A DNA stretch of 18,141 nucleotides from Promethearchaeota archaeon (GTDB lineage Archaea > Asgardarchaeota > Lokiarchaeia > Sigyniarchaeales > Promethearchaeaceae), in assembly GCA_016933055.1 (NCBI GenBank), contig JAFGBS010000015.1, positions 1-18,141 on the forward strand. Direction: 5' to 3'. Below, one piece after another: positions 98 to 13,993 of this stretch (its first letter is position 1; each line of letters begins with the position of its first letter). Position numbers and translations under genes: made by a program. The notes beneath the pieces are model-generated. The model did no database searches. It saw only the letters and a program-made list of their open reading frames with translations, and was not told the origin of the DNA.

Positions 98-1669
98 TTA
101 AGTTTTTTTCTGCAATTTCAATGCAAACACACTAACTCCCAGCGAAATAGTACCAAGTAAGATAAATATATGATAACCAGGAATTAACCGTGTAATTTTA
201 CCCCATATTCCACGAATATCAAAGAAAGCTAAAAATACGGGATCGTGCTCAAGGCGTCCTCCTTTATACTCTCCGAAGTTTGGATAACAACTCACAAATA
301 AGGCTGCAGTACTCTCGGGATCAAAATAGTCCCACGCATCATCAAATGTGATACCATTTGTGAAATGATTTGTTTGGTTGACTGCATATGAAATCATGAG
401 TTGTGCAAACGGTCCGATTAACTGGGTCATTCCTGAAACTAGATTTATGAATTCTTCATTGCCTACAATATCCAAAGACTCATATATAACAGGATTTGTC
501 GTAGAGTTCGATGGATTTCCCCATTCATATTGAGTGTAATCGGGTTTCTGCTCGAATTCATAATTGAACACTTCTTCACCGGTCACAACCGCAGAAACAG
601 TAGTTAATCCATGATTTGTAGTCTGAGTATTAATTTCACTTCCAGTAGTATTTAATAATGAATAATCCTCATCAACCCCTGCCATTATAAGTGCATAAGA
701 TCCTATACATAGTGCCCAATCATCTGGTATATACTCAGAATCTTCTGGTAAAATTAATGTGAATGGATCTACCTGATTATCTCGCATATAGAGATGGGTT
801 ACTTCACCACCAATGTAATCATTTGTGAGAGTTGAAGTACCTGCATCTATGTTTAGAACTAATGTATATTCATAATAGATAAACTCTTGAACACCAAAAC
901 CTCGGGAACCATCCAAGTAAGTTCCCGGATCGTTATATTCAAATCCCCATTCAAAAGTATCGTTGCGCATGGCACCGGTGGGTAATAATGTACGATTCAC
1001 TTCGGGTAAATAGAAACAAACATCTGTATAGTTATATGCCCAAGAATAGGTTATTTCATTACCGCTAACTGAACGTTCCATAGGGGTTACTATCACATCA
1101 GGATCTAAACTAGCGGCAAGAGTTGGAAATTTCCCAGCCCAATTCTCGTCGATCATTGTCATATAGAAGAAAGGTGTAATTTCTTCATCTCCTTCTTCAT
1201 ATATTCCATTATGATTATGGTCCCCCCAACCAAACCACGCACTAAGCATATTGCCTATAAGCATCTCGTGTCCTTCGTAATAATAGTGCATATACCAGAA
1301 CTGAGCGGGAGTAAATACTATTGCATCCGGATCATTATCTATTCCGGATTTATTCATAAACGCAAGAAATCCCATCTCGAAATTTCCCTCAGATATCCAT
1401 TTGATATTCCACGTATTATTTAGCCAGGTGGTTTGATTATTAATTCCCATTGAGGGATCTTCCACCTCCCAATTTGAGTTGTTAAAGACCATGATATCCC
1501 AGTAATTCTCGTCATAGGTATGCCCATTAAACACTTCCTCTTGTGAGGGTGGACCTTCAGCTCGAACAGATAACATAAAAAATGGCACTACAAGCCCAAT
1601 TAAAATCGATACCAATACCAAAGAAGCAGTTTTAAACTGTAATTTTTTCATAAAATCACCTTTCACCAT
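98..1669 (-). CDS. Secreted acidic surface glycoprotein with C-terminal Loki-CTERM-type sorting tail (IPGY + TM + basic); S-layer/surface-protein-like, function unknown. Real start may be ATG at 1651 (MKKLQF...)
   Basis: N-terminal MKK + hydrophobic stretch + VRA|EG signal peptide. C-terminus RLIPGYHIFILLGTISLGVSVFALKLQKKT. Ten N-x-S/T sequons counted. D/E-rich mature part. GGTGAT lies 3 nt before both ATG 1669 and ATG 1651. Confidence 0.85.
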   Translation of the reverse strand: MVKGDFMKKLQFKTASLVLVSILIGLVVPFFMLSVRAEGPPSQEEVFNGHTYDENYWDIMVFNNSNWEVEDPSMGINNQTTWLNNTWNIKWISEGNFEMGFLAFMNKSGIDNDPDAIVFTPAQFWYMHYYYEGHEMLIGNMLSAWFGWGDHNHNGIYEEGDEEITPFFYMTMIDENWAGKFPTLAASLDPDVIVTPMERSVSGNEITYSWAYNYTDVCFYLPEVNRTLLPTGAMRNDTFEWGFEYNDPGTYLDGSRGFGVQEFIYYEYTLVLNIDAGTSTLTNDYIGGEVTHLYMRDNQVDPFTLILPEDSEYIPDDWALCIGSYALIMAGVDEDYSLLNTTGSEINTQTTNHGLTTVSAVVTGEEVFNYEFEQKPDYTQYEWGNPSNSTTNPVIYESLDIVGNEEFINLVSGMTQLIGPFAQLMISYAVNQTNHFTNGITFDDAWDYFDPESTAALFVSCYPNFGEYKGGRLEHDPVFLAFFDIRGIWGKITRLIPGYHIFILLGTISLGVSVFALKLQKKT

Positions 1670-1753: not shown

Positions 1754-3091
1754 TCATTCGGTCTTGTGACTCCTTTCCCATGAAAAATCAAGTTCGATGT
1801 ATTTTCTACTATAAAACAGCGTTATAATCAAAACTACGGATGTGATGGGGCCCCAAAGCACATATCCAATTGATTTCGATCCAACTACAAATCCATAATC
1901 TGGAAGTTTCAAAATTACTCCTGCGATAAACAGGCTCACTGCTTGGAATAGGTTTAAAGCAATTGACGGAAATCCCGCATAGATACCCGCTTTAATAGTT
2001 CCCTTTCCTCGTTTTTGACTATCCTCTGCTAAATCAGCATATATTAAGTAGGGATATATATTCCATGCACCAAGTGATAAACCAATGCCTGCAACAAAGA
2101 TTGAACCAAATATAAAATAATTAGATAAGGGAATTAATCCAAACAGTGAAAACAGCATAATAAAAGCTGCCATTCCTAGTAATATCAATAGAGGTTTCTT
2201 TTTACCAATCTTTGTGATCAACTTTCTCCATAAAATAACACTAACAATAGTCATTACAATAATTAGGCCTGCGGCAATATAGAATTGAAAACCCCCTAAA
2301 CCGAGGACTTCTTCGGTATATGATAGCATATACTGACCGATCATGGACCATGCGAATGAGGCAAGCCCAATCATGAGAGTAACTTTTAAGAAATTTTTAT
2401 CTCTTATTAAATTCAGGAAATCCTCCTTCATGTTCGTTTGGATGGGTTCCATTTTCTCAACGGGCATAATGAATGCAGTAGTGTACAGAAAAACTGTAAC
2501 AAGAATCGCAACTGTTATAGTGGATACTAAGAAATTCGTGGGTATTGCGGAGGGATCTACCTTTAAAAGGTCTTCCAAATCAGTTAATACTACCATTGTG
2601 AATAATGCAGTGATTGAAGTGCCTGAAAAATTTAGAATATTTTGAATCATGGACACTTTCGGTCTTTGTTGGACTGGAAAAAGTTCAGCTAACCACGATT
2701 GATAAGCAGTCAGCATGCCATATAATCCTTGAAATAGGAAATTGAATGACGCGAACCAAATAAACATCGGAACTCCGCCAGTAGTAGAACCTAAGAATAC
2801 TCCGGGCAGTAAAAGACAGATAAAACTTAAAGACATCAACGGAGAAAATGCAATGATATAGGGTTTTCTCCTCCCTATTTTAGTGGTGGTTTGATCAGAC
2901 ACCCATCCAAAAAAGAACTGGAAAAAAGCTATTGAAATTTTACCGAGAAATAATGAACTACCAATATATAAAGGGTCCAGACCATATCCGGAATCATACA
3001 AAAACAATAAAGCAAAATCCACGAAGCCGATTAACATAGAAGTAAATAATCTGGGCATACTAAACAAGAAAGCATTTGGTGTTTTTTCCAA
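1754..3091 (-). CDS. MFS transporter, glycoside-pentoside-hexuronide (GPH/MFS_2)-like
   Basis: About 12 hydrophobic segments. Loop 2-3 motif GWVSDQTTTKIGRRKPYI. AYQSWLAELFP and PYLIYADLAED segments are typical of GPH carriers. TTG start (caa at 3089-3091 on +). Confidence 0.85.
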   Translation of the reverse strand: MEKTPNAFLFSMPRLFTSMLIGFVDFALLFLYDSGYGLDPLYIGSSLFLGKISIAFFQFFFGWVSDQTTTKIGRRKPYIIAFSPLMSLSFICLLLPGVFLGSTTGGVPMFIWFASFNFLFQGLYGMLTAYQSWLAELFPVQQRPKVSMIQNILNFSGTSITALFTMVVLTDLEDLLKVDPSAIPTNFLVSTITVAILVTVFLYTTAFIMPVEKMEPIQTNMKEDFLNLIRDKNFLKVTLMIGLASFAWSMIGQYMLSYTEEVLGLGGFQFYIAAGLIIVMTIVSVILWRKLITKIGKKKPLLILLGMAAFIMLFSLFGLIPLSNYFIFGSIFVAGIGLSLGAWNIYPYLIYADLAEDSQKRGKGTIKAGIYAGFPSIALNLFQAVSLFIAGVILKLPDYGFVVGSKSIGYVLWGPITSVVLIITLFYSRKYIELDFSWERSHKTE

Positions 3092-3337: not shown

Positions 3338-3745
3338 ATGACAGAAATAACAAAACCCTATAGAATCATGCTAATTATAGATATAGTTATCTGTTTAGCT
3401 GTCTCGATTCCCTATATGTTTCTTATTGGAACTTGGTCACCCTTAATTGAATACTCATATTCCACACCATGGTACGCTCAAATATTCGGTGTACTTCTAT
3501 TCATGATCGCTGTGTGGTTGCTAAGAGCAATACTGCAAAAGAAAGAATGGCATGACATATCCTACTTTATGGAATTCTTGTTTGCAATTTTATTTGGTAT
3601 GATCATTTATTTTGCATTGGAACTGTTGTTCGTAGAATTAACCGATATTGCTTTGATTTACGCAATCGTCAGTACTTCAGTGACCGGGGCTCTTTTTGTT
3701 GCCAATATGATATTTTACTTTATTGAAACTGCCAAACATAAATAA
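3338..3745 (+). CDS. Hypothetical membrane protein, 4 TM helices
   Basis: 135-aa ORF with four hydrophobic segments, GTGAT 5 nt before the ATG and a T-tract (about 3762-3771) after the stop. No family recognised. Confidence 0.75.
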   Translation: MTEITKPYRIMLIIDIVICLAVSIPYMFLIGTWSPLIEYSYSTPWYAQIFGVLLFMIAVWLLRAILQKKEWHDISYFMEFLFAILFGMIIYFALELLFVELTDIALIYAIVSTSVTGALFVANMIFYFIETAKHK

Positions 3746-3817
3746 CTCTAACCATCTCCAATTTTTTTTTTGAAAGCGTTTTAATCTTTATAAAGAGTAA
3801 GAACCCCATTTATTAAT

Positions 3818-5881
3818 ATGAAAAAGTTAAGTGATGGTGCAAAAACCGAATTTTCTAAAATTGCTTTTGCGAGCATATTGTTCTTATTTTTCCTCCAATT
3901 ATTTTCAGATTTCATTGAAAGTGTATATATCTTCGCTTTAATGACATTATCTTTGAACGAAAATGTGCTAACAGTCTTATTCTTCCTATCCCCTATCTTA
4001 TTGATATTTGCTGGAAAAAAAGAATTACCCAAACTTCTGTTAGTTATCATCAACAGTATAATGGTATTAGCAAGAGTATTGGAACCTTTATTTGATACTA
4101 AATTACGTATGATTGTTTCTGGTCTTGGAGTGGGATGTTTCTTGCTCTTTTTCCCCGCATTTTTGTCTAGACAAAATTCCGATGAAAAACAGATTAGTGG
4201 TCACACACTTGGGGTAGGGATGGTATTAGCGTTATGCATTTCCATCCTTTTCAGAGTATTGAATTCATCTGTTGACATATCAACATATAGGTGGTTTCAA
4301 TCTATTGGATGGGTATTAGGATGTATTGAAATTATAATACTGTTGGATTTTTTTAATTTTCTCCATATTTTTGATGTCACTAACTCTACTGAAAGTGATT
4401 TTGAAACTTCTGCTGAAATATCCACTAAACTCATAGAAAAAAAGAAGAGGGGGAAAATATTTGGTGCTATATTGGGATTCTCATGTATATTCTTAATATT
4501 GTATTTTGTCTTCAGCAGCCCCGTAATGGTAACACGCTGGACAGAAGCAAATTTTGTATTGATTACCATATTCTTAATAGCAACATTTGGCATAAGTGCA
4601 GGAATTTTGATTTTCAAACCACAGGTCGTACATTCAATTAATCCTTTGATATTATGGATATGGAATGGACTCTTCACTCTAAGCCTAGTGGGAACCATTT
4701 TGATCAATCAGATAATTTTTCCATCAACCTCAGATTCCTATCCAATTCTGGTTTCCCAACCCCAATTTTTCCATTTAATTCCTCCGTTTATCCTAATCAT
4801 TTTATCGCCCGTACTTTTCATTGATCTCATATTAATGTTTACAAATCTAATAAAAAGTAAACCCTCTCTACCCAGATTAGGGGCTAGTTTTACTCTATCT
4901 GGTGGTTTATTTATGTTGGTTTTTGTGTTTGCATTAGTCTTTACTTCTACTTGGGGATTTGTTCCACCTGTAAGTTTTTACCTCAGAGATCAATTTTGGT
5001 CGGTATTTTTAATCGTCTCGCTAATACTCATGGGATTGGTATACTTTCAACGAAAGGGAGCTTTTACCATCCGAGTACCCAACTATACTAAAAAATTAAA
5101 AATTGGAGCTTCAATCTTTCTCGGGGTACTGGTTATAAGTACTATTACTGGAGCTTTTATTATAAAGGTAAATCCCCCGGAAATGCCGAGCGGAGTGACC
5201 TCCATGAAAATCTTAACATATAATCTTCAACAAGGTGTGAATGATGACGCTACCAAAAATTATGATGGACAATTAGAATTAATCCGAGAAATTAATGCAG
5301 ATATCATAGGATTACAAGAATCCAGTAAAATTGCAGGTAATTCAGACGTGGTCCAATATTTTGCCAATAAACTGGATATGTACTCATATTTTGGTCCGCG
5401 AGGTGTCACTGGTACTACGGGAGTTGCCCTACTTTCGAAATATCCAATTTCAAGCGTAAAAACTCTTTATCATTATAATGAAGATTCAGATCGCAAGCAA
5501 ACAGCAACTATTGAAGCAGAAATCACTATTGGAGTAAAAATATTTACCGTATATGTTACTCATACATTCGGATCAATGGAAGCAAAAAGTATGTTGGTAA
5601 ATGATACCCTCCTTAGAGCGCAAGGAAAAGAAAATGTATTATTTGTCGGAGATTTCAATTTCAGACAAGATTCTGAAGCTTATAATCTCACAACTGCTGT
5701 ACTAGTAGATGCTTGGTTAAACCAATGGCCGACGGGTATTGATGATTGGGGTGTGAATGCAACAAGACGAATTGACCATATTTTTGTGGGCACGGATTTA
5801 TCTATAACAGCCTGCCGATATGAGGATTGGGAAGAAACTCAATCTGATCATCCCGCTTGTTGGGCTACAATTAGTTGGTAA
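3818..5881 (+). CDS. Multi-TM protein with C-terminal endonuclease/exonuclease/phosphatase (EEP) domain; CWH43/PGAP2IP-like
   Basis: About 460-aa polytopic N-terminus. The EEP domain starts near nt 5204 with motifs LTYN, GLQE, GVALLSKYP, VTH, GDFN, RIDHI, SDH. Segments F-L-S-P-I, KLRMIV.GLGV, VTRW, FVP and GNSD...KLDMY..FGP match CWH43 proteins as recalled from memory. Confidence 0.85.
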   Translation: MKKLSDGAKTEFSKIAFASILFLFFLQLFSDFIESVYIFALMTLSLNENVLTVLFFLSPILLIFAGKKELPKLLLVIINSIMVLARVLEPLFDTKLRMIVSGLGVGCFLLFFPAFLSRQNSDEKQISGHTLGVGMVLALCISILFRVLNSSVDISTYRWFQSIGWVLGCIEIIILLDFFNFLHIFDVTNSTESDFETSAEISTKLIEKKKRGKIFGAILGFSCIFLILYFVFSSPVMVTRWTEANFVLITIFLIATFGISAGILIFKPQVVHSINPLILWIWNGLFTLSLVGTILINQIIFPSTSDSYPILVSQPQFFHLIPPFILIILSPVLFIDLILMFTNLIKSKPSLPRLGASFTLSGGLFMLVFVFALVFTSTWGFVPPVSFYLRDQFWSVFLIVSLILMGLVYFQRKGAFTIRVPNYTKKLKIGASIFLGVLVISTITGAFIIKVNPPEMPSGVTSMKILTYNLQQGVNDDATKNYDGQLELIREINADIIGLQESSKIAGNSDVVQYFANKLDMYSYFGPRGVTGTTGVALLSKYPISSVKTLYHYNEDSDRKQTATIEAEITIGVKIFTVYVTHTFGSMEAKSMLVNDTLLRAQGKENVLFVGDFNFRQDSEAYNLTTAVLVDAWLNQWPTGIDDWGVNATRRIDHIFVGTDLSITACRYEDWEETQSDHPACWATISW

Positions 5882-5953: not shown

Positions 5954-6817
5954 ATGAGTGTAATTGACGCACATGTTCATGGATTCCCAAATCGTTTGTT
6001 TCACGCAATTTGGGATTATTTTGAAAAAAACTATTGGGCTGTACAAAAAAAATTAGAATTCGAAGAGATTGTGCAATATCTTCCTAAATTTGGAGTGAGT
6101 AATTTTACTATTTTAAATTATGCTCATATGCCTGAAATTTCCAGAGATCTTAATGATTGGACTTATTCGATGAGCAAGAAATATCCTCAAACTATCCCAT
6201 TTGGAACTATTCATCCAAAAGATTCTTATTTTCATGAAGAAGTTATCCGCGTTTTATCCCCTGATCATCTGGATTTTTTTGGGTTGAAGTTTCAGCTTAT
6301 GGTTACTGATTTTGATCCGAACGATGCTTCTTTGGATTATATGTATGAGAAACTAATCGAATTCAGTAAAATTCTTGTAATGCATGTAGGTACAGGACCC
6401 GTTCCAGATATGCTATTAAATAAATCATTAAAGATAAATTCCCACGTAGGAATCGATAAATTAATTCCTGTTCTTGAGAGATATCCCAAATTAAAACTTC
6501 AGGTTCCTCATTTAGGATGTATGGAAACCAATGCATTTTTTGATTTAGTTTTGGACTATCCCCAGATCCATTTTGATACCTCTATGGCATTAGAATTCTT
6601 GTTTGGGGAATCAAAGAGTCAATTTTCTCAAGACATGGAACTTTCGATTGATCGATTAGTAGAATTACAAGATAATATCATATTTGGTTCGGATTTTCCT
6701 AACATACCCCATGCTTATTCCACATCATTGAATGCAATTAAGCAACTACGTTTAACTCAAGAAATTAGAAATAAATTCCTATATAAGAATGCTCAGAAGT
6801 TTTATAATTTGAAATAA
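5954..6817 (+). CDS. Metal-dependent amidohydrolase (Amidohydro_2 family), substrate unknown
   Basis: IDAHVH (HxH), FGTIHP, GLKFQ, MHVG, PHLG and FGSDFP motifs of the TIM-barrel amidohydrolase_2 family. Confidence 0.88.
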   Translation: MSVIDAHVHGFPNRLFHAIWDYFEKNYWAVQKKLEFEEIVQYLPKFGVSNFTILNYAHMPEISRDLNDWTYSMSKKYPQTIPFGTIHPKDSYFHEEVIRVLSPDHLDFFGLKFQLMVTDFDPNDASLDYMYEKLIEFSKILVMHVGTGPVPDMLLNKSLKINSHVGIDKLIPVLERYPKLKLQVPHLGCMETNAFFDLVLDYPQIHFDTSMALEFLFGESKSQFSQDMELSIDRLVELQDNIIFGSDFPNIPHAYSTSLNAIKQLRLTQEIRNKFLYKNAQKFYNLK

Positions 6818-6831
6818 GAAGAAAAAAAGAA

Positions 6832-7683
6832 TTAAAAGTTTAAATTCAATATCATCGATTCTTTCTTCGGTATTCGAAACACATACTCATAAAACACCCA
6901 GCTAACCGTCCACACGAAAGCGATAGCCCATAATACATCTGAAGCAAAATGTTTTCCGGCGACCACCCTACTTAATCCCATGATCACACTTCCGATAGTT
7001 CCAATCACAAAACCAAGCCATTTGAATATCCTTGTAATGATATAAATCGAAGTGTTTAATTTAGGGTTGTTGGGAACCATTTGCTTCCATATATCATTAT
7101 TTCTGAAAACAAAAAATATCAAAGAAAACATAGCAGTCGCAGATGTGTGACCACTTGGGAAAGATTTACCTTCCCCAATCAGTGCTGGGTTCTTGAGAAA
7201 TGCGGGTTCCCATACAAAAAAGAAATCATACATATCTGCGGAAAGAGAATTTGGCCATAAATCTGTTTGAACTGGCCTGGGTCGACCATATAATCCTTTA
7301 AATATCACATTCACAATCAATCCAACGCTGATTACTACCGAAATAATGATATATAATGAGTATCTTGTTAAGAGTTTTCCTTTGGGATGTTTCACTCGTA
7401 TCAGACCGATTATAAGTAATACTGCGAAAAAGATCACCATAGTAACATCGAACACAATTTCATTATCATTCATCCATTTCCAAGGATTATCATCCTCTAA
7501 AAAAAAGCGTTCCCCTAAAGGAAGGGTAGAATCATAAAATTGATTAGTGATAAGTTTATCTAACCAACCATCATTTATCATGAACATAATTGTGAGTAAT
7601 GCTAATGCTGAATAGAGAAAGATAAGCAATAATGCACGAATCCTTTTCATGATAGTTTTTCTGTGTTCGAAACTCGATTTCAT
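6832..7683 (-). CDS. PAP2-family integral membrane lipid phosphatase
   Basis: All three PAP2 motifs: C1 KGLYGRPRP, C2 SFPSGH, C3 SRVVAGKHFASDV; several TM helices. Start could be the ATG at 7650. Confidence 0.9.
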   Translation of the reverse strand: MKSSFEHRKTIMKRIRALLLIFLYSALALLTIMFMINDGWLDKLITNQFYDSTLPLGERFFLEDDNPWKWMNDNEIVFDVTMVIFFAVLLIIGLIRVKHPKGKLLTRYSLYIIISVVISVGLIVNVIFKGLYGRPRPVQTDLWPNSLSADMYDFFFVWEPAFLKNPALIGEGKSFPSGHTSATAMFSLIFFVFRNNDIWKQMVPNNPKLNTSIYIITRIFKWLGFVIGTIGSVIMGLSRVVAGKHFASDVLWAIAFVWTVSWVFYEYVFRIPKKESMILNLNF

Positions 7684-7864: not shown

Positions 7865-9949
7865 TTAGTTTACGTATTCTATTTTAGATTTGAGCGGCAA
7901 ATCTCTTGAAGATGTTCCAACCCAAAGTGTAAAACTTCCTGGTTCTATAATAAACTCATGATCTTTTTCAGAATAAAATTCAAAAGCGGATTGATCTAAT
8001 TCAACAGAAACAGTCTTGGTTTCTCCGGGATTCACATGGATTTTTACAAAATCTTGTAATTCTATTGGAGGACGTTCAATGGACGCATGGTCATCTGATA
8101 TGTATACCTGAACAACTTCAGATCCTGCTCTAGACCCGGTATTCTTGACATCCACACTAACTGCAAATTTACCATTTCTCTCAATTTTTGGGATGCTAAC
8201 TCGCAGATTAGACAATTTAAAAGTGGTATATGAAAGTCCAAACCCAAAAGGAAATTGAGGTTCTATATTTTCTTTATCGAAATACCGATATCCTACAAAA
8301 ATCCCTTCATCAAAATAGATTTTGAGTTCATCTAAATCACCCGGAAATCGTTTTTTTGATATATGTGCCGGATGATCCTCTAGCTTCTTGGGATAGGTAA
8401 CAGGGAGTTTTCCGGATGGATTAACCTCTCCAAACACTAATCGAGCTACGGCATCTCCCCCAGTCATGCCGGGATACCATACATTAAGTAGACCGCGAGA
8501 CTTTTCTAGAAAAATGGAACAATCCACTGGACTCCCCGCTACCAGAAGGACCACAGTATTAGAATTCTGTTTTATGGTGTCCTCAAATAATTTATTTTGA
8601 TCTTCTGGTAGTGAATAACTGGTTCGATCCTTTCCTTCCATATCTCCTTCAGTTTTATTACCAAATAGCATAGTTTTTAGGAAATGTCCTCCATGATTCA
8701 TACCAAGTACCAGAATCGTCACATCGGCATCCTTTGGGTCAGACACAATTTGAGCCTTTCCTTTTACGTATTTCGCAATTCCATGGTAAGGAGTAATGAA
8801 TCTGGGAGGCACTACGGCTGAGCTTCCTCCATGAAAAGGTGCACCAAATTTTTTTTGAGCATTTGGCCCAATAACAGCAATTTTCTTCACTTGATTTAGA
8901 TCGATTGGCAAGATCCCATCGTTTTTCATTAGAACCGCTCCCTCTTCTGCCACTTTTCGTGCCAAATCTTGGTGCTCAGGTATGTCCAAAATCTTTGATG
9001 GTTCGATAATCTCTTTATCGAACAATCCTACTCGGAAGAATGTACGTAACAGCGGTTTTACAACATAGTCTATATCTGATTCTGAGATTTTTTCTGCTTT
9101 TAGAGCTTTTTGTATGTTTTTCGGACGCATTGTTCTGCTCATTGCAATTCCAGGCATTTCGAGACTTAATCCCGCCTTGATACATTGAGCAGCACCCCCC
9201 TCAACATTTCGAGATGCGCCCCAATCAGTTACAACATGACCTGTGAATCCTAATTCATCGCGAAGTATGTCTTTCAACAAGTGTTTATTTCCAGAACCGT
9301 ATACACCATTTATTTTGTTGTAACAACTCATTAATCCCCAAGGACCACTTTTTTCGATTATTCTTTTGAAGTTTTTAATATATATCTCATGAAGAGCCCT
9401 TTCTTGGATTTCTGTACTAATTTCCATTCGTTTGGTTTCACTGCAGTTTGTTATGTAATGTTTGATGCAAGCGGCGATGTTTTCTGATTGGATTCCTCTC
9501 ACCACTTCTGCAGCAATATCAGAGGAAAGGATGGGATCTTCACTCAGATATTCGAAATTTCGGCCGCATAATGGACTTCGAATGAGATTAACACCGGGAC
9601 CTAAAATTTGATGTCTCCCTGCTAATTTGGTTTCTTTACCCATCACCTTCCCCGTACTATAAGCAAGTTCTTTATTCCAACTAGCTGCTAATGCAATGGT
9701 ACTTGGAAATCGTGTTCGTTTACCCTTAAAACTAGAATGATATGCCACTCCTAGAGGACCATCCGTCATGCCAAAGGCTGGAATCTGTAGTCGCTCAATA
9801 GGATTAGTGGTCCAAAAGTCTTTTCCTCGGAGTAGACGGATTTTTTCATCCAATGTTAATTGATTGAGTAGATCATCAACTCGTTCTTCTATAGGTGCAG
9901 ATTTATCTAAATATGTTTTCATCATATCACTTCTGTAAAAAAATGCCAT
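7865..9949 (-). CDS. Glycoside hydrolase family 3 (beta-glucosidase/BglX-like) with C-terminal Fn3-like domain, cytoplasmic. Real start probably ATG 9925 or 9922
   Basis: TDGPLG, GRNFEYLSEDP, CIKHY, MSCYN, VVTDWG (nucleophile Asp), EGKDR, WYPG, PSGKLPVT, VGYRYFD, PFGFGLSYT. No signal peptide. AGTGAT precedes the tandem ATGs. Confidence 0.95.
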   Translation of the reverse strand: MAFFYRSDMMKTYLDKSAPIEERVDDLLNQLTLDEKIRLLRGKDFWTTNPIERLQIPAFGMTDGPLGVAYHSSFKGKRTRFPSTIALAASWNKELAYSTGKVMGKETKLAGRHQILGPGVNLIRSPLCGRNFEYLSEDPILSSDIAAEVVRGIQSENIAACIKHYITNCSETKRMEISTEIQERALHEIYIKNFKRIIEKSGPWGLMSCYNKINGVYGSGNKHLLKDILRDELGFTGHVVTDWGASRNVEGGAAQCIKAGLSLEMPGIAMSRTMRPKNIQKALKAEKISESDIDYVVKPLLRTFFRVGLFDKEIIEPSKILDIPEHQDLARKVAEEGAVLMKNDGILPIDLNQVKKIAVIGPNAQKKFGAPFHGGSSAVVPPRFITPYHGIAKYVKGKAQIVSDPKDADVTILVLGMNHGGHFLKTMLFGNKTEGDMEGKDRTSYSLPEDQNKLFEDTIKQNSNTVVLLVAGSPVDCSIFLEKSRGLLNVWYPGMTGGDAVARLVFGEVNPSGKLPVTYPKKLEDHPAHISKKRFPGDLDELKIYFDEGIFVGYRYFDKENIEPQFPFGFGLSYTTFKLSNLRVSIPKIERNGKFAVSVDVKNTGSRAGSEVVQVYISDDHASIERPPIELQDFVKIHVNPGETKTVSVELDQSAFEFYSEKDHEFIIEPGSFTLWVGTSSRDLPLKSKIEYVN

Positions 9950-10108: not shown

Positions 10109-10561
10109 TTGCATGAATTTGCATTAGTTCAAAATATCATAGGACGTTGTTTACGTGTCGCGAATCAAAACAATGCTTCCATAATCACAGATATTGAATT
10201 GGAAGTGGGTGATTTTTCGCTGGTAATTGAACATATGTTCCAACAATCCTTCCGAACGTTAAAAAAAGACACAATTGCAGAAACCGCAATATTGCATATT
10301 AAACGAACTCCGGGAATTATTCATTGCAATTCATGTAATAGAGAATCTGAAATTTGGTGGAGATCTGCTGTACAGATCTCTGATTCCAAATATCAGCAAT
10401 CCCTTCAGAAATATGAAAAAAGTGTCACACCGCAGGATGTGTTAACGGGCAATTCAGATTTTGGAAAAAATTTATTCCAGTGCTTGTATTGTGAGAGTAA
10501 TGACACAGAGTTAATTAAAGGAAAAAGTATTGTTATAAAAAACATCAAGATTAAATCCTAG
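10109..10561 (+). CDS. hypA: Hydrogenase maturation nickel metallochaperone HypA/HybF family
   Basis: N-terminal MHE (TTG CAT GAA), LEVGDFS, two CxxC motifs (CNSC, CLYC) and a C-terminal GK..VIKNIKI strand. Confidence 0.88.
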   Translation: MHEFALVQNIIGRCLRVANQNNASIITDIELEVGDFSLVIEHMFQQSFRTLKKDTIAETAILHIKRTPGIIHCNSCNRESEIWWRSAVQISDSKYQQSLQKYEKSVTPQDVLTGNSDFGKNLFQCLYCESNDTELIKGKSIVIKNIKIKS

Positions 10562-10566
10562 AACCA

Positions 10567-12681
10567 TTATATGGGCTCAAAATCCTTTTTAACTTGAACG
10601 GCTGCAAATTTGTATCCTGGTTCTCTGGAATATTCGTCGAAAATTGGGAAAGTAAGCTTATTCGTTTCTTTATAATGCATAGGCATGAATACTTCACCCT
10701 CCTTCACCCTACCCCCGATTAAAGCTTTAACCTTTATCTTATCTCGCCGGGAAGATACTTGTACCCATTGGTTCTCTTCTATCCCTAAATTTTTGGCATC
10801 CGTGGTGCTAATTTCAATATAGGGGTCTTTTGGTAATTTTCTTGCTAATAATGGTACTTTCCCAGTTCGTGTATGAGTATGCCATGTAGATATATTTCCC
10901 CTTCCCGTGATTAATATGAAAGGATAATCTTGATTAATTTCTTCTGGATAGGGCAATATGTCGTCATAGAGGAACTGTGCCTTTCCATCTTCATGGTAAA
11001 ACACTCCATCATCAAATAACCTTCGGTAAGTGTCAGTCTTTTTATTTTTTGAACTGGGATATGGCCATTGAATTCCTCCGTGATCCAAAATCATTTGATA
11101 AGATTCTATACCACTAAAATCCCATGGTTTTCCTTTAGTTAGCTTTTTGATAACTTGAAAGGCAGATTCTGGATTTGTCCATCTCTTAAATAAATGGCTA
11201 CAACCCCACGTATCGGCAACTCGGTTAAATATATCAAAATCTGATAAAGCTTCTCCTGGTGGATCGAGGACTTTTTGTAGTAGTCCGATTCTTCGTTCCG
11301 AATTTACAAAAGTGCCGTCTTTCTCACCAGTTCCTGCGGCAGGTAGAATTAAATTAGCTAATTGAGCAGTTTCCGTCGTATAGTACATGTCCTGAACCAC
11401 GAGATACTCCAAGTTTTCCACAATTTCGGGAAATTCATTGCTATTTATCCACGAATGTGCTGGGTTGGTGCACACTACCCACAAACCCTTGATTTTCCCT
11501 TCTTTAATCTTTTCCAATATCTTTTCATAGGATGCACTATTAACATGGGGAATTACACCACTATCAATACCTAATATTTTAGCTACAGTGTTTCTATCGG
11601 ATTCCTTAGTGAAATCATATCCTCCCAGCAATGCTGTTGTATTGCTGAAGATTCTTGCTCCCATTGCATTACATTGTCCCGTAATCGAATTAGGTCCCGT
11701 TCCGGGTTTTCCAATATTACCAGTCATCAATGCAAGATTAATTAATGCTTGTGCCGTCCTTGTTCCTTGATGAGCTTGATTTACTCCTACCATCCACCAA
11801 AATGATACAGCTTTTCCTTTATGTATAATTTCAGCAAGTTTGCTTATCTGCTCTTCGGAAATACCTGTTTTTCTTGCTGTACTCTCGAGTGTATATTTAG
11901 CTATATGTTTCTTAAATTCCTTAAAACCAGAGGTATGAGTGTTAACAAATTCACCATCTACCCAATTATTTTGAATGAGTATATTTGCTATAGTATATAA
12001 TAAATACAACTCAGATTTCGCCTTTATTGGATAATAAAGAGAAGTAATCTCGTCCGTTGCGGTTTCTGTTTTTCGGGGATCTATCACGACTACAGTTGGA
12101 TCATTCAGATTATTTTGTATTCTCCACCATATAACCGGATGGGAAATTGCTGCGTTGGAACCAAAAAAAATCATCACATCTGATTTTTCCAAATCCTCGT
12201 ATGTAAAAGGAGGTGCATCCCACCCGAAGGATTGTTTATATGCTACTACTGAGGTAGCCATGCATTGTCTTGTGTTACCATCTCCATGGATCATCCCCAT
12301 GCCAAATTTTGCAAGTGCACCAAGAAAAGCATGTTCTTCATTAGTAATCTGACCCGTGCTTATGAATGCAATAGAATTTTTCCCGTAGTTGTTTTGAATT
12401 CTCTTAAAATTTCCCACAAATTCTTGTAGAGCTGCCTCCCACGTGATCGGGATAAAACGATTTTCATGATCTCTTATATATGGAGTGGTTGCTCGATCAT
12501 CCACATTTAAATGAGAAAGCAATTGAAATCCTTTCGGACAGGCTTTTCCTTGATTCACTGGGTAATCGAGATTTGCTCTAACTATTGGTTTACCTTTATC
12601 ATCAAATTTTATAATCATATTACATCCTGTGGAGCAATATCCACAAGTCAAGTAACGGATCTTATTTTCCATACTCATCAC
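10567..12681 (-). CDS. nasA: Cytoplasmic molybdopterin (bis-MGD) nitrate reductase catalytic subunit, NasA/NarB type
   Basis: N-terminal CGYCSTGC...CPKG [4Fe-4S] motif with the conserved Lys. NTRQCMATS carries the Mo-ligand Cys (TGC at 12262-12264). Also FG.DAPP, SITGQCNAMG, TFVNSERR and a C-terminal molydop_binding domain. No Tat RR signal, no C-terminal BFD domain. Overlaps narK. Start is GTG 12681 or ATG 12678/12672. Confidence 0.85.
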   Translation of the reverse strand: MMSMENKIRYLTCGYCSTGCNMIIKFDDKGKPIVRANLDYPVNQGKACPKGFQLLSHLNVDDRATTPYIRDHENRFIPITWEAALQEFVGNFKRIQNNYGKNSIAFISTGQITNEEHAFLGALAKFGMGMIHGDGNTRQCMATSVVAYKQSFGWDAPPFTYEDLEKSDVMIFFGSNAAISHPVIWWRIQNNLNDPTVVVIDPRKTETATDEITSLYYPIKAKSELYLLYTIANILIQNNWVDGEFVNTHTSGFKEFKKHIAKYTLESTARKTGISEEQISKLAEIIHKGKAVSFWWMVGVNQAHQGTRTAQALINLALMTGNIGKPGTGPNSITGQCNAMGARIFSNTTALLGGYDFTKESDRNTVAKILGIDSGVIPHVNSASYEKILEKIKEGKIKGLWVVCTNPAHSWINSNEFPEIVENLEYLVVQDMYYTTETAQLANLILPAAGTGEKDGTFVNSERRIGLLQKVLDPPGEALSDFDIFNRVADTWGCSHLFKRWTNPESAFQVIKKLTKGKPWDFSGIESYQMILDHGGIQWPYPSSKNKKTDTYRRLFDDGVFYHEDGKAQFLYDDILPYPEEINQDYPFILITGRGNISTWHTHTRTGKVPLLARKLPKDPYIEISTTDAKNLGIEENQWVQVSSRRDKIKVKALIGGRVKEGEVFMPMHYKETNKLTFPIFDEYSREPGYKFAAVQVKKDFEPI

Positions 12682-13993
12682 TACTCCTTTTCTTTAAGAT
12701 TATCATGATACCTATACAAATTACCGATAAAATCACAAAAATAATAAATCCGAGATTATATCCCTGCATGTCGAATATATCAACGAATAATCCCATCAAA
12801 GGGGGGATAATGAATCCTCCTAATGCTCCTAATCCTCCTACCCACCCCGCAGCTCCCCCCACAGCTTCAGGTACAATGCCGGGAACCATTTTAAATACTC
12901 CTGCATTTACCATTCCCATCCCAATTGCAATCAATACCATTGCGATGAGAGCAAGAATTATCATTGAGGACGAAAATATCATCATGATAGATCCTGATAG
13001 GAGAATCGAGATCCCGATAATAGTAACAACGGAACCCGTTATTTTATCAGCAATTGATCCAGAAAATACTCTGACTAGAGAACCAATTATAATAAAGATT
13101 GCATTTAAAATTAGCGCGATACTGAAACCGAGCTCACCTAAAATAAAATCCCCCGTTCCATAAAGGTTTGGCCAAAAACGAGGAAACCACGCGCTCAGTC
13201 CTATAAAACCTCCAAAGGTTGTAAAATATAATCCGACTAATGCCCAAGTTTTCCACATACTAGCAGATTTCAACAAACTATTTTTTAGACTATTATTCGA
13301 AAAAATTTCTTGTCCAAGAGATATTCCGATCTCCTTTGCATCTAGTTTACTTAATCCCTGCTCTTCCAGTTGAAAAGACCATGCATTGGATCCAATTCTA
13401 AAATAAACTCCAGTTCCTAGCACTAACACAATGAACCACAACAGATACGATCCTCCCAAACCCCAAAATGCTAATGTTATCGTCATAATCAAAGAGAATA
13501 TACCCGGAGCTAAATTGCCTATTCCCGCGTACAGACCTAATGCTTTACCTTGTTCGGATTTTTTAAACCAATACGATGTCTGAGATATCCCGACAGAAAA
13601 AGTTGCAATACCGCATCCCGATAGAAATCCGAATATCAGCAATAAACCGTAATGAGCAAGTGATATAGTAGGATATATGATGTAGGCGGTCAATACGAGC
13701 CCAAAGAGACCAGTAATTGCCATAAATAGCAATATGAGCATGGGTTTTTTTCCACCAATAGAATCTGACCACGCTGCAAATGGGATTCTTAAAAGTGAAC
13801 CTGATAAATTTGGCATCGCAACGAGTAAACCTATCATAGCGTCCGTTGCTCCACCAGCCTTTAAACCAGGTTCAAAAAATTTGGAAGTGGCACCCAACGC
13901 CACTACTGCTGTAAATCCTATAAAAAATCCTAGAGTGGAACCAATTATACCTTTGGTGGGATTTCCCTTAATAACATATTTTATTTCAGACAA
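12662..13993 (-). CDS. narK: Nitrate/nitrite porter (NNP) family MFS transporter
   Basis: Conserved substrate-binding Args in TM2 (GSLLRIPF) and TM8 (GSLVRVFSG), TM7 LYFTTFGGFIG, nitrate signatures AGIGNLAPG and GMVNAGVFKMVP. TTG start preceded by GGTGATC. 3' end overlaps the nitrate reductase start. Confidence 0.9.
   Translation of the reverse strand: MSEIKYVIKGNPTKGIIGSTLGFFIGFTAVVALGATSKFFEPGLKAGGATDAMIGLLVAMPNLSGSLLRIPFAAWSDSIGGKKPMLILLFMAITGLFGLVLTAYIIYPTISLAHYGLLLIFGFLSGCGIATFSVGISQTSYWFKKSEQGKALGLYAGIGNLAPGIFSLIMTITLAFWGLGGSYLLWFIVLVLGTGVYFRIGSNAWSFQLEEQGLSKLDAKEIGISLGQEIFSNNSLKNSLLKSASMWKTWALVGLYFTTFGGFIGLSAWFPRFWPNLYGTGDFILGELGFSIALILNAIFIIIGSLVRVFSGSIADKITGSVVTIIGISILLSGSIMMIFSSSMIILALIAMVLIAIGMGMVNAGVFKMVPGIVPEAVGGAAGWVGGLGALGGFIIPPLMGLFVDIFDMQGYNLGFIIFVILSVICIGIMIILKKRSSDEYGK

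Follow-up and report, generated by a model that had tools for sequence, protein, structure and literature searches.

Does an archaeon of the Asgard group encode a full-length counterpart of the eukaryotic membrane proteins PGAP2IP and Cwh43, and what reaction could such a protein catalyse in a prokaryote? The question is raised by P0001, a 687-amino-acid (aa) open reading frame (ORF) on an 18,141-nucleotide (nt) stretch of DNA from Promethearchaeota archaeon (GenBank assembly GCA_016933055.1, contig JAFGBS010000015.1), which is called the window throughout. According to the translation of the window, the ORF is complete and contains no internal stops. A first-pass annotation, made from the sequence of the window alone, had described its product as a full-length CWH43/PGAP2IP-like protein with an intact catalytic site and as a possibly ancestral form of the eukaryotic enzymes that remodel glycosylphosphatidylinositol (GPI) lipids. 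Our analysis leaves us highly confident that P0001 is homologous to PGAP2IP/Cwh43 in family and architecture. Members of its family are about 650–700 aa long and consist of a 12-helix domain with the fold of the major facilitator superfamily (MFS), a 13th transmembrane (TM) helix and an extracytoplasmic endonuclease/exonuclease/phosphatase (EEP) domain (Table 1), and we regard the family as the prokaryotic counterpart of PGAP2IP, and likewise of Cwh43 over its C-terminal two thirds, with the whole architecture in common.

To relate P0001 to the eukaryotic proteins, we made use of the three Pfam models that form the architecture of PGAP2IP, PF23022, PF23021 and PF23226; closeness to eukaryotes was judged by the scores against these eukaryote-type models, which are a proxy and not a phylogeny. 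PF23226, the PGAP2IP C-terminal nuclease-like domain, matches residues 468–585 of P0001 with 54.6 bits (cut-off 27; 57 bits in the genome-level search), the alignment being limited to profile positions 9–127 of 239. Its alignment to prokaryotic members stops at about position 175 of 239, which would fit a divergence of the last segment in eukaryotes. PF23022 reached 19.5 bits (cut-off 27) at positions 3890–4270 of the window in the genome-level search, colinear with the gene and the best match in the genome, and is matched by one of 33 family membrane domains (E 0.011). By Pfam criteria, P0001 would be placed as an outlying member of the PGAP2IP/Cwh43 family.

The full-length AlphaFold2 model of P0001, built with 24 homologues (predicted local distance difference test score, pLDDT, 81; predicted TM-score, pTM, 0.83), shows twelve helices in residues 1–418, a 13th helix at residues 425–449 and then the alpha/beta EEP domain. 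With predictions on both sides of the comparison, it superposes on a chordate cluster of PGAP2-interacting protein (699 aa, with all three of these Pfam domains) with TM-scores of 0.79/0.78 over 620 residues and a root mean square deviation (rmsd) of 3.9, and fungal Cwh43 clusters gave TM-scores of 0.79 and 0.78 by query. The membrane part alone reached 0.73 with fungal Cwh43 versus 0.53–0.61 with ordinary MFS transporters. Profile comparison by hhalign joined the P0001 family (A1) to a PGAP2IP-like Asgard subfamily described below (A4) with 100% probability (E 1.7e-54, 583 columns), and the similarity is not confined to the generic EEP domain, as the membrane parts alone (A3 versus A5) match with 99.2% probability (E 9.1e-20, 315 columns). 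Motifs common to both membrane parts are E..Y..L.TLS.N, G.GVG, FSS..V..RW and (W/Y)(G/D)(F/Y)VP...FR(D/E). The membrane motifs picked by the first-pass annotation coincide with these, and the strings that it quoted are all found in P0001: VYIFALMTLSL at residues 36–46, FLSPI at 56–60, TKLRMIVSGLGV at 94–105, VFSSPVMVTRW at 231–241 and WGFVPPVSFYLRD at 379–391, and in the EEP domain GNSD...KLDMYSYFGP...GVALLSKYPI at 507–544. Its full-length PGAP2IP-like assignment is upheld by structure, by hhalign and by PF23226, but not by direct similarity of the membrane part (PF23022 at 19.5 bits, PF23021 without a match). Because of the structural matches and the sequence bridge through the Asgard subfamily, the family call stands as full-length homology.

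PGAP2IP has about the same length as P0001 (~700 aa) and the same order of parts, namely 6+6 TM helices followed by a further TM helix and, at the C-terminus, an EEP-type domain, whereas P0001 stays below the cut-offs of both membrane-domain models. The C-terminal two thirds of yeast Cwh43p have the PGAP2IP architecture, as P0001 does, but Cwh43p carries in addition an N-terminal Frag1/PGAP2 domain (PF10277). As there is no PF10277 in the P0001 ORF, the archaeal protein resembles the mammalian unfused form. Mammalian PGAP2IP is a protein of the endoplasmic reticulum (ER) whose biochemical function is unknown (PMC7125958).

Is the EEP domain equipped for catalysis? The generic model PF03372 matches residues 466–678 of P0001 over its entire length (profile positions 1–225 of 225, E 7e-22), and the catalytic motifs read TYN(469), LQE(501), TH(582)T, GD(612)FN(614), ID(653)H and SD(677)H(678). 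Among the 24 Asgard homologues N469, E501, H582, D612, N614, D653 and H678 do not vary at all, and conservation of H654 and D677 is 90% or higher; the same catalytic core is invariant across 36 wider homologues, distant bacterial ones included. In the mechanism of EEP enzymes such as APE1, DNase I and Bc-SMase, these residues make up the complete metal-binding and general-base set. The first-pass annotation was right in calling the catalytic site intact: LQE (499–501), GDFN (611–614), IDH (652–654) and SDH (676–678) are present, and the core does not vary. Foldseek matched the domain to 4ruw, TDP2, 3mpr and 3g6s, and weakly to ExoIII folds. When solved structures were ranked with the EEP profile, the uncharacterised EEP proteins 3teb, 3g6s, 4ruw and 3mpr came first, followed by the glycan mannosyl-6-phosphatase 4c1r (E 2e-8), staphylococcal beta-hemolysin and Listeria sphingomyelinase C, with nucleases lower. 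Searching solved structures with the whole protein sequence gave only a marginal AP-endonuclease match, and the PDB copy searched contains no structure of PGAP2IP or Cwh43.

The membrane part of P0001, modelled alone, reached a pLDDT of 87 and a pTM of 0.90, with a basic, disordered central loop (residues 179–210). Its best VIA-align match among solved structures is NorA (Z 19.1, 331 aa, rmsd 4.6), and the top 50 rows (Z 19.1 to 13.3) are all MFS-type transporters or MFS-fold membrane proteins, including the lipid-handling proteins EfpA, Spns1 and LtaA. Foldseek returned 25 matches at E ≤ 1e-3, all of them MFS, the best being EfpA with bound lipids. The membrane domain is accordingly modelled as having the MFS fold. 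Since no MFS model of Pfam matched P0001 at E ≤ 1, and since motif A (D-R-x-G-R-R-like) is not in the TM2–TM3 loop, which reads GKKELP, we claim the fold without claiming membership of the superfamily and leave common descent open. P0001 has the 12-TM 6+6 fold in common with EfpA, Spns1 and LtaA (Z 14–19 over 320–370 residues); unlike in these transporters, the domain has conserved residues on its outer face and is fused to an enzyme via the 13th helix.

The loops of P0001 carry 14 lysines and arginines on the predicted inside, that is, the side of the N-terminus and the central loop, versus three on the predicted outside, and the loop before the 13th helix (residues 412–424) has three. These charges argue for an N-in topology in which the 13th helix carries the EEP domain to the outside, the side equivalent to the ER lumen for PGAP2IP. 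Most of the membrane-domain residues that are invariant among the 24 Asgard homologues are predicted to lie in outer loops or outer helix ends, on the EEP side (E34, Y37, R86, R146, D153, S155, R240, W241, T242, F301, P309 and R390).

How widespread is this architecture, and where does P0001 stand within it? The suggestion that the window comes from an Asgard archaeon proved correct, and the lineage is Loki-type: the best homologues of P0001 are from Promethearchaeota archaeon (67% identity) and Promethearchaeum syntrophicum (57%), and those of Thor-, Hod-, Heimdall-, Hel- and Hermodarchaeota come next with 40–50%. The protein is conserved over its full length across the Loki, Thor, Heimdall, Hod, Hel and Hermod lineages, and homologues cover 100% of P0001 and align from residue 1, which supports its start codon. 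Searched against a library clustered at 50% identity, the A1 profile retrieved 10,732 representatives at E ≤ 1e-3 and 380 at E ≤ 1e-30; the best 150 of these matches are prokaryote-like, mostly full length and about 620–720 aa long. PF23226 is present in 83 of 201 sampled Asgard genomes (41%), or 38 of the 86 high-quality ones, often in two to four copies, and in 27 of 201 sampled Chloroflexota genomes. The Chloroflexota (Anaerolineae) proteins are full-length homologues of P0001 with 35–42% identity and cluster TM-scores of 0.90/0.92, but they are bacterial, and most sampled copies score lower against PF23226 (28–55 bits) than Asgard ones do (50–112 bits).

Two trees were built, both from prokaryotic sequences only, and some long-branch representatives (P0240, P0264 and others) shifted between them; no conclusion is drawn from these. 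In the 106-row maximum-likelihood tree the Asgard sequences form one clade of 57–58 rows (SH-aLRT branch support 98), with Chloroflexota (and one Bacillota sequence) as the neighbouring sister clade, and the closest partner of P0001 is the P. syntrophicum sequence (SH-aLRT 100), which a Thorarchaeota group joins next. The genome of the window (3.76 Mb, 36 contigs, 91% complete) encodes a second full-length copy, P0121, of 679 aa and 38% identity to P0001. P0121 falls into a Loki/Hermod group, a different Asgard sub-clade from that of P0001, so the paralogy of the two is old. Two Hodarchaeota loci contain tandem pairs (L050:431-2368 with L050:3341-5359, and L075:621-2438 with L075:3425-5467), each made up of one copy from the main Asgard clade and one very divergent copy (branch length 3.2 in the first tree and 2.0 in the second).

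The idea that P0001 itself is an ancestral form is weakened: it belongs to a large Asgard clade that is sister to Chloroflexota, and a rare subfamily labelled Hodarchaeota and Kariarchaeaceae is far closer to the eukaryotic models. Two members, P0300 (from G111) and P0301 (from G178), were picked among the Asgard genomes scoring highest against PF23226. Both pass all three PGAP2IP models in order, P0300 with 42.2 (PF23022), 83.1 (PF23021) and 109.4 bits (PF23226) and P0301 with 28.7, 64.4 and 100.1 bits. Their relatives P0302–P0314 are labelled Hodarchaeota, Kariarchaeaceae and Promethearchaeota, and a library search with P0300 found only this Asgard subfamily. PF23021 exceeds its cut-off in three of the 201 sampled Asgard genomes, none of them being the window's genome or in its family or order. 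The rare subfamily has the architecture of P0001 and keeps the catalytic core; it differs in reading IDF where P0001 has IDH, in a pairwise identity of 22% and in forming a separate deep clade. In the second tree this clade stands beside the divergent tandem Hodarchaeota copies and haloarchaeal sequences, a position that carries a long-branch warning. By its model scores, the subfamily appears a better candidate than P0001 for the closest prokaryotic relative of PGAP2IP/Cwh43. That the eukaryotic proteins descend from this Heimdall-side Hod/Kari subfamily of an Asgard MFS-EEP machine, with the P0001 clade as an older paralogue, is a doubtful proposition at present. If it were true, glycolipid anchors would have undergone exchange of head groups or lipids before eukaryotes arose, and the prokaryotic enzymes would offer a tractable route to the reaction of PGAP2IP.

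PF23021 is also passed by a bacterial protein, P0245 (30.3 bits), whose contig encodes a porin and a GGDEF-EAL protein. On this Gram-negative contig a GDSL lipase gene lies 27 nt upstream of P0245 on the same strand (L086:4040-6594), a possible lipid-related pairing. In an Asgard family (f7), a PF23021-type membrane part (401–428 aa) and a PF23226 EEP part (192–312 aa) lie in adjacent separate frames (G131:C22:38263-39410 on the minus strand, G027:C7:46151-47259 and G176:C21:43884-45103 on the plus strand), which may be split genes or frameshifts.

What reaction might P0001 catalyse? Homology, fold, intact catalytic residues and a charge bias that places the N-terminus inside and the EEP domain outside are in hand. 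P0001 is probably an active phosphodiesterase that faces outwards. The fuller proposal that we favour, with moderate confidence, is that of an outward-facing metal-dependent phosphodiesterase or phosphotransferase acting on the phosphodiester of a substrate presented by the MFS-like domain, and the chances that this substrate is lipid-linked rather than soluble or a glycan appear about even. The outer face of the MFS-like domain would hold an amphipathic lipid-linked substrate at the membrane surface, and the EEP domain would cleave its head-group phosphodiester, or transfer it to another alcohol, in the manner of a phospholipase C/D or a sphingomyelinase. A reaction of this kind, an exchange at a phosphodiester, has been proposed for Cwh43, which would replace the diacylglycerol or phosphatidate of GPI anchors with ceramide or ceramide-phosphate (PMC4962981, PMC7125958). 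In this Loki-lineage genome the substrate is probably no GPI or inositol lipid; better candidates are phospho-glycolipids, lipid-linked glycans and surface glycans with phospho-decorations. Several points weigh against this proposal. PF23022 gives no hmmscan match to P0001 at E ≤ 1 and PF23021 none in either hmmscan or the genome-level search, and because P0001 fails these Pfam membrane models, the case for homology of its membrane domain has to be made from predicted structures and from a profile match that is transitive. The conserved outer face may dock the EEP domain or present the substrate, a role read from the positions of conserved residues only. No conserved operon partner that would hint at a substrate is found in 80 related loci, and the nearest characterised EEP relatives act on glycan sugar-phosphodiesters, not on lipids. 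The role of the Asgard/Chloroflexota and Cwh43/PGAP2IP EEP domains has been called 'still vague' (PMC10704324).

These glycan-active relatives suggest another function, in which P0001 would be a surface glycan phosphodiesterase or phosphatase that removes phosphoethanolamine, phosphocholine or phosphate from N-glycans or cell-envelope polymers, as N-acetylglucosamine phosphodiesterase (GlcNAc-PDase) and BT3783 do, with the MFS-fold domain either anchoring the enzyme or importing the phospho-alcohol that it releases. The only characterised members of the same EEP sub-cluster are phosphodiesterases that act on phosphocholine or phosphoethanolamine at position 6 of GlcNAc (GlcNAc-6-PC/PE), with the same metal-dependent phosphodiesterase chemistry (PMC10704324); solved structures, when ranked by profile, place the mannosyl-6-phosphatase 4c1r (E 2e-8) above the sphingomyelinases; in related bacterial proteins this EEP type is fused to PF01663 phosphodiesterase/phosphotransferase and glycosyltransferase domains; and P0001 has GH3 and sugar-type MFS genes in its vicinity in the window. 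However, the characterised GlcNAc-PDases are soluble, secreted proteins of 219–357 aa without TM segments, whereas P0001 has 687 aa and 13 TM helices, its 12-TM domain is conserved as strongly as the EEP domain, with invariant residues on the outer face and not lining a typical transport path, and the window neighbours are not conserved in the 80 related loci. We regard this function as possible but unlikely. The least credible of the functions considered here is that of an extracellular nuclease anchored in the membrane, which would break down DNA or RNA from the environment and leave uptake of the products to the MFS domain. The EEP superfamily is rich in nucleases, and TDP2 and ExoIII folds are matched weakly, yet NCBIfam gives only sub-threshold ExoIII models, on which ground this function was rejected: TIGR00633 scores 33.9 bits against a cut-off of 99, and the PGAP2IP-type model scores higher and passes. 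In addition, the glycan phosphatase and the sphingomyelinases rank above nucleases in the EEP profile search, and published clustering sets this group away from nuclease EEPs (PMC10704324).

Could P0001 nevertheless be an intact remodelase of archaeal inositol or GPI-like anchors that is directly ancestral to Cwh43/PGAP2IP, in line with the first-pass annotation, which had called it a possibly ancestral form? The homology to PGAP2IP/Cwh43 is full-length, the family is monophyletic and widespread in Asgard archaea, and a study from 2026, working at pathway level and leaving CWH43 unnamed, traces the synthesis and maturation of GPI anchors to Asgard archaea (PMC12872458). However, models for PIG-M, PIG-V, PigN, GPI8/C13, Frag1/PGAP2 (PF10277) and the PIGA domain found no match at E ≤ 0.001 in the 91%-complete genome, although several of these negatives are weak because the models matched no control genome either. 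The only GPI-related model with any signal is GWT1/PIG-W, at a sub-threshold 21.7 bits (cut-off 29.6) in a 429-aa frame (G000:C2:111348-111761, minus strand). Inositol-1-phosphate synthase was not found in this genome, though six control genomes gave matches. As neither GPI assembly genes nor inositol-1-phosphate synthase were found, a role in GPI or inositol-lipid remodelling is unlikely here: P0001 differs from Cwh43 in that the GPI anchor, the substrate of the latter, has no detectable biosynthetic pathway in its genome. The rare Asgard subfamily is, moreover, much closer to the eukaryotic Pfam models, the P0001 clade is sister to Chloroflexota, and mammalian PGAP2IP itself is without a demonstrated GPI function (PMC7125958). 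A directly ancestral GPI remodelase is therefore very improbable, and the outward-facing phosphodiesterase or phosphotransferase with a substrate presented by the MFS-like domain remains the function that we favour.

Parts of this picture are known. NCBI and JGI label the proteins of this family as 'endonuclease/exonuclease/phosphatase family protein', and the precomputed Pfam matches include PF23226. At the level of the EEP domain, the link of Asgard archaea and Chloroflexota to Cwh43 was published in 2023: the EEPs of an 'Asgard/Chloroflexus group', to which P0001 belongs, cluster with GlcNAc-6-phosphodiesterases and beside Cwh43p and PGAP2IP, next to sphingomyelinases (Chuzel et al, 2023; PMC10704324). 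P0001 itself is mostly ordinary, one more member of an annotated group of EEP family proteins. We found no published description of the full-length relationship, the MFS fold of the membrane domain, the outward-facing conserved face or the rare Asgard subfamily with the complete eukaryote-type Pfam architecture. The whole architecture, that is, MFS fold, 13th helix and outward or lumenal EEP domain, exists with an intact catalytic site in many Asgard archaea and some bacteria, and homologues are present in two cultured Asgard species, Promethearchaeum syntrophicum (L020) and Lokiarchaeum ossiferum (L071), which makes these proteins candidate model enzymes for PGAP2IP/Cwh43 chemistry. With regard to eukaryogenesis, the lead is the Hod/Kari subfamily that passes all three models, and not P0001; it makes the origin of a component of GPI maturation testable by phylogeny. 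Human CWH43 appears in reviews on the genetics and pathophysiology of hydrocephalus.

Table 1. Coordinates of P0001, its parts, the other genes named in the window and related proteins; positions refer to the window unless a locus is given.
Feature	Position	Strand	Basis
523-aa protein, no family, hydrophobic N- and C-terminal segments	98-1669	-	window gene
GPH-type MFS_2 transporter	1754-3091	-	window gene
135-aa four-helix membrane protein, no family	3338-3745	+	window gene
TTTATAAA, TATA-box-like element ~24-31 nt before ATG	3787..3794	+	read from sequence
P0001, complete ORF: MFS-fold membrane domain, 13th TM helix and C-terminal EEP domain	3818..5881	+	ORF, homologues, model
P0001 residues 1-418, predicted 12-helix (6+6) MFS-fold domain	3818..5071	+	AlphaFold2 model, structure matches, hhalign
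P0001 residues 425-449, 13th TM helix	5090..5164	+	helix in both models, loop charges
P0001 residues 463-687, extracytoplasmic EEP domain	5204..5881	+	Pfam, residue invariance, Foldseek
Amidohydro_2 protein	5954-6817	+	window gene
PAP2 lipid phosphatase	6832-7683	-	window gene
GH3 glycosidase with Fn3-like domain	7865-9949	-	window gene
P0121, paralogue of P0001	L001:136-2172 = G000:C2, ~42445-44481	+	genome search
P0300	L087:717-2606 from G111:C285	+	three Pfam models
P0301	L088:653-2584 from G178:C375	+	three Pfam models

The window is low in GC (31–40%). An oligo-T run (3763–3771) lies between the stop of the upstream gene and TTTATAAA, and the run together with this TATA-box-like element suggests that the P0001 gene may have an archaeal promoter of its own, separate from that of the upstream gene, with a leader that would be short or absent. 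No RNA datasets are listed as containing the stretch, its sole full match being a sediment metagenome from which this DNA may itself derive. Among the 80 related loci, the neighbours of P0001 gave one weak match, and the commonest common neighbour occurs in eight of the 80. As no neighbour is conserved, the PAP2, GH3, amidohydrolase and MFS genes next to P0001 are not taken as evidence for its function.

Beyond the standard architecture, a word-index search limited to proteins longer than 875 aa brought up bacterial forms only, M48-fused ones among them. In P0270, P0271 and P0272 (926–1138 aa), a Ste24/HtpX-type M48 peptidase (PF01435, PF16491) is fused to the MFS-EEP protein, and in P0273 (1223 aa) this EEP type is combined with glycosyltransferase domains and with a phosphodiesterase domain (PF01663). 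PF01663 and PF23226 also occur together in a Verrucomicrobiota cluster. Elsewhere in the window (10109–13993), a HypA-like gene on the plus strand adjoins a molybdopterin oxidoreductase gene on the minus strand (704 aa, with an N-terminal Fe4S4 domain), which overlaps the upstream MFS_1 gene (443 aa, minus strand) by 20 nt (12662–12681).

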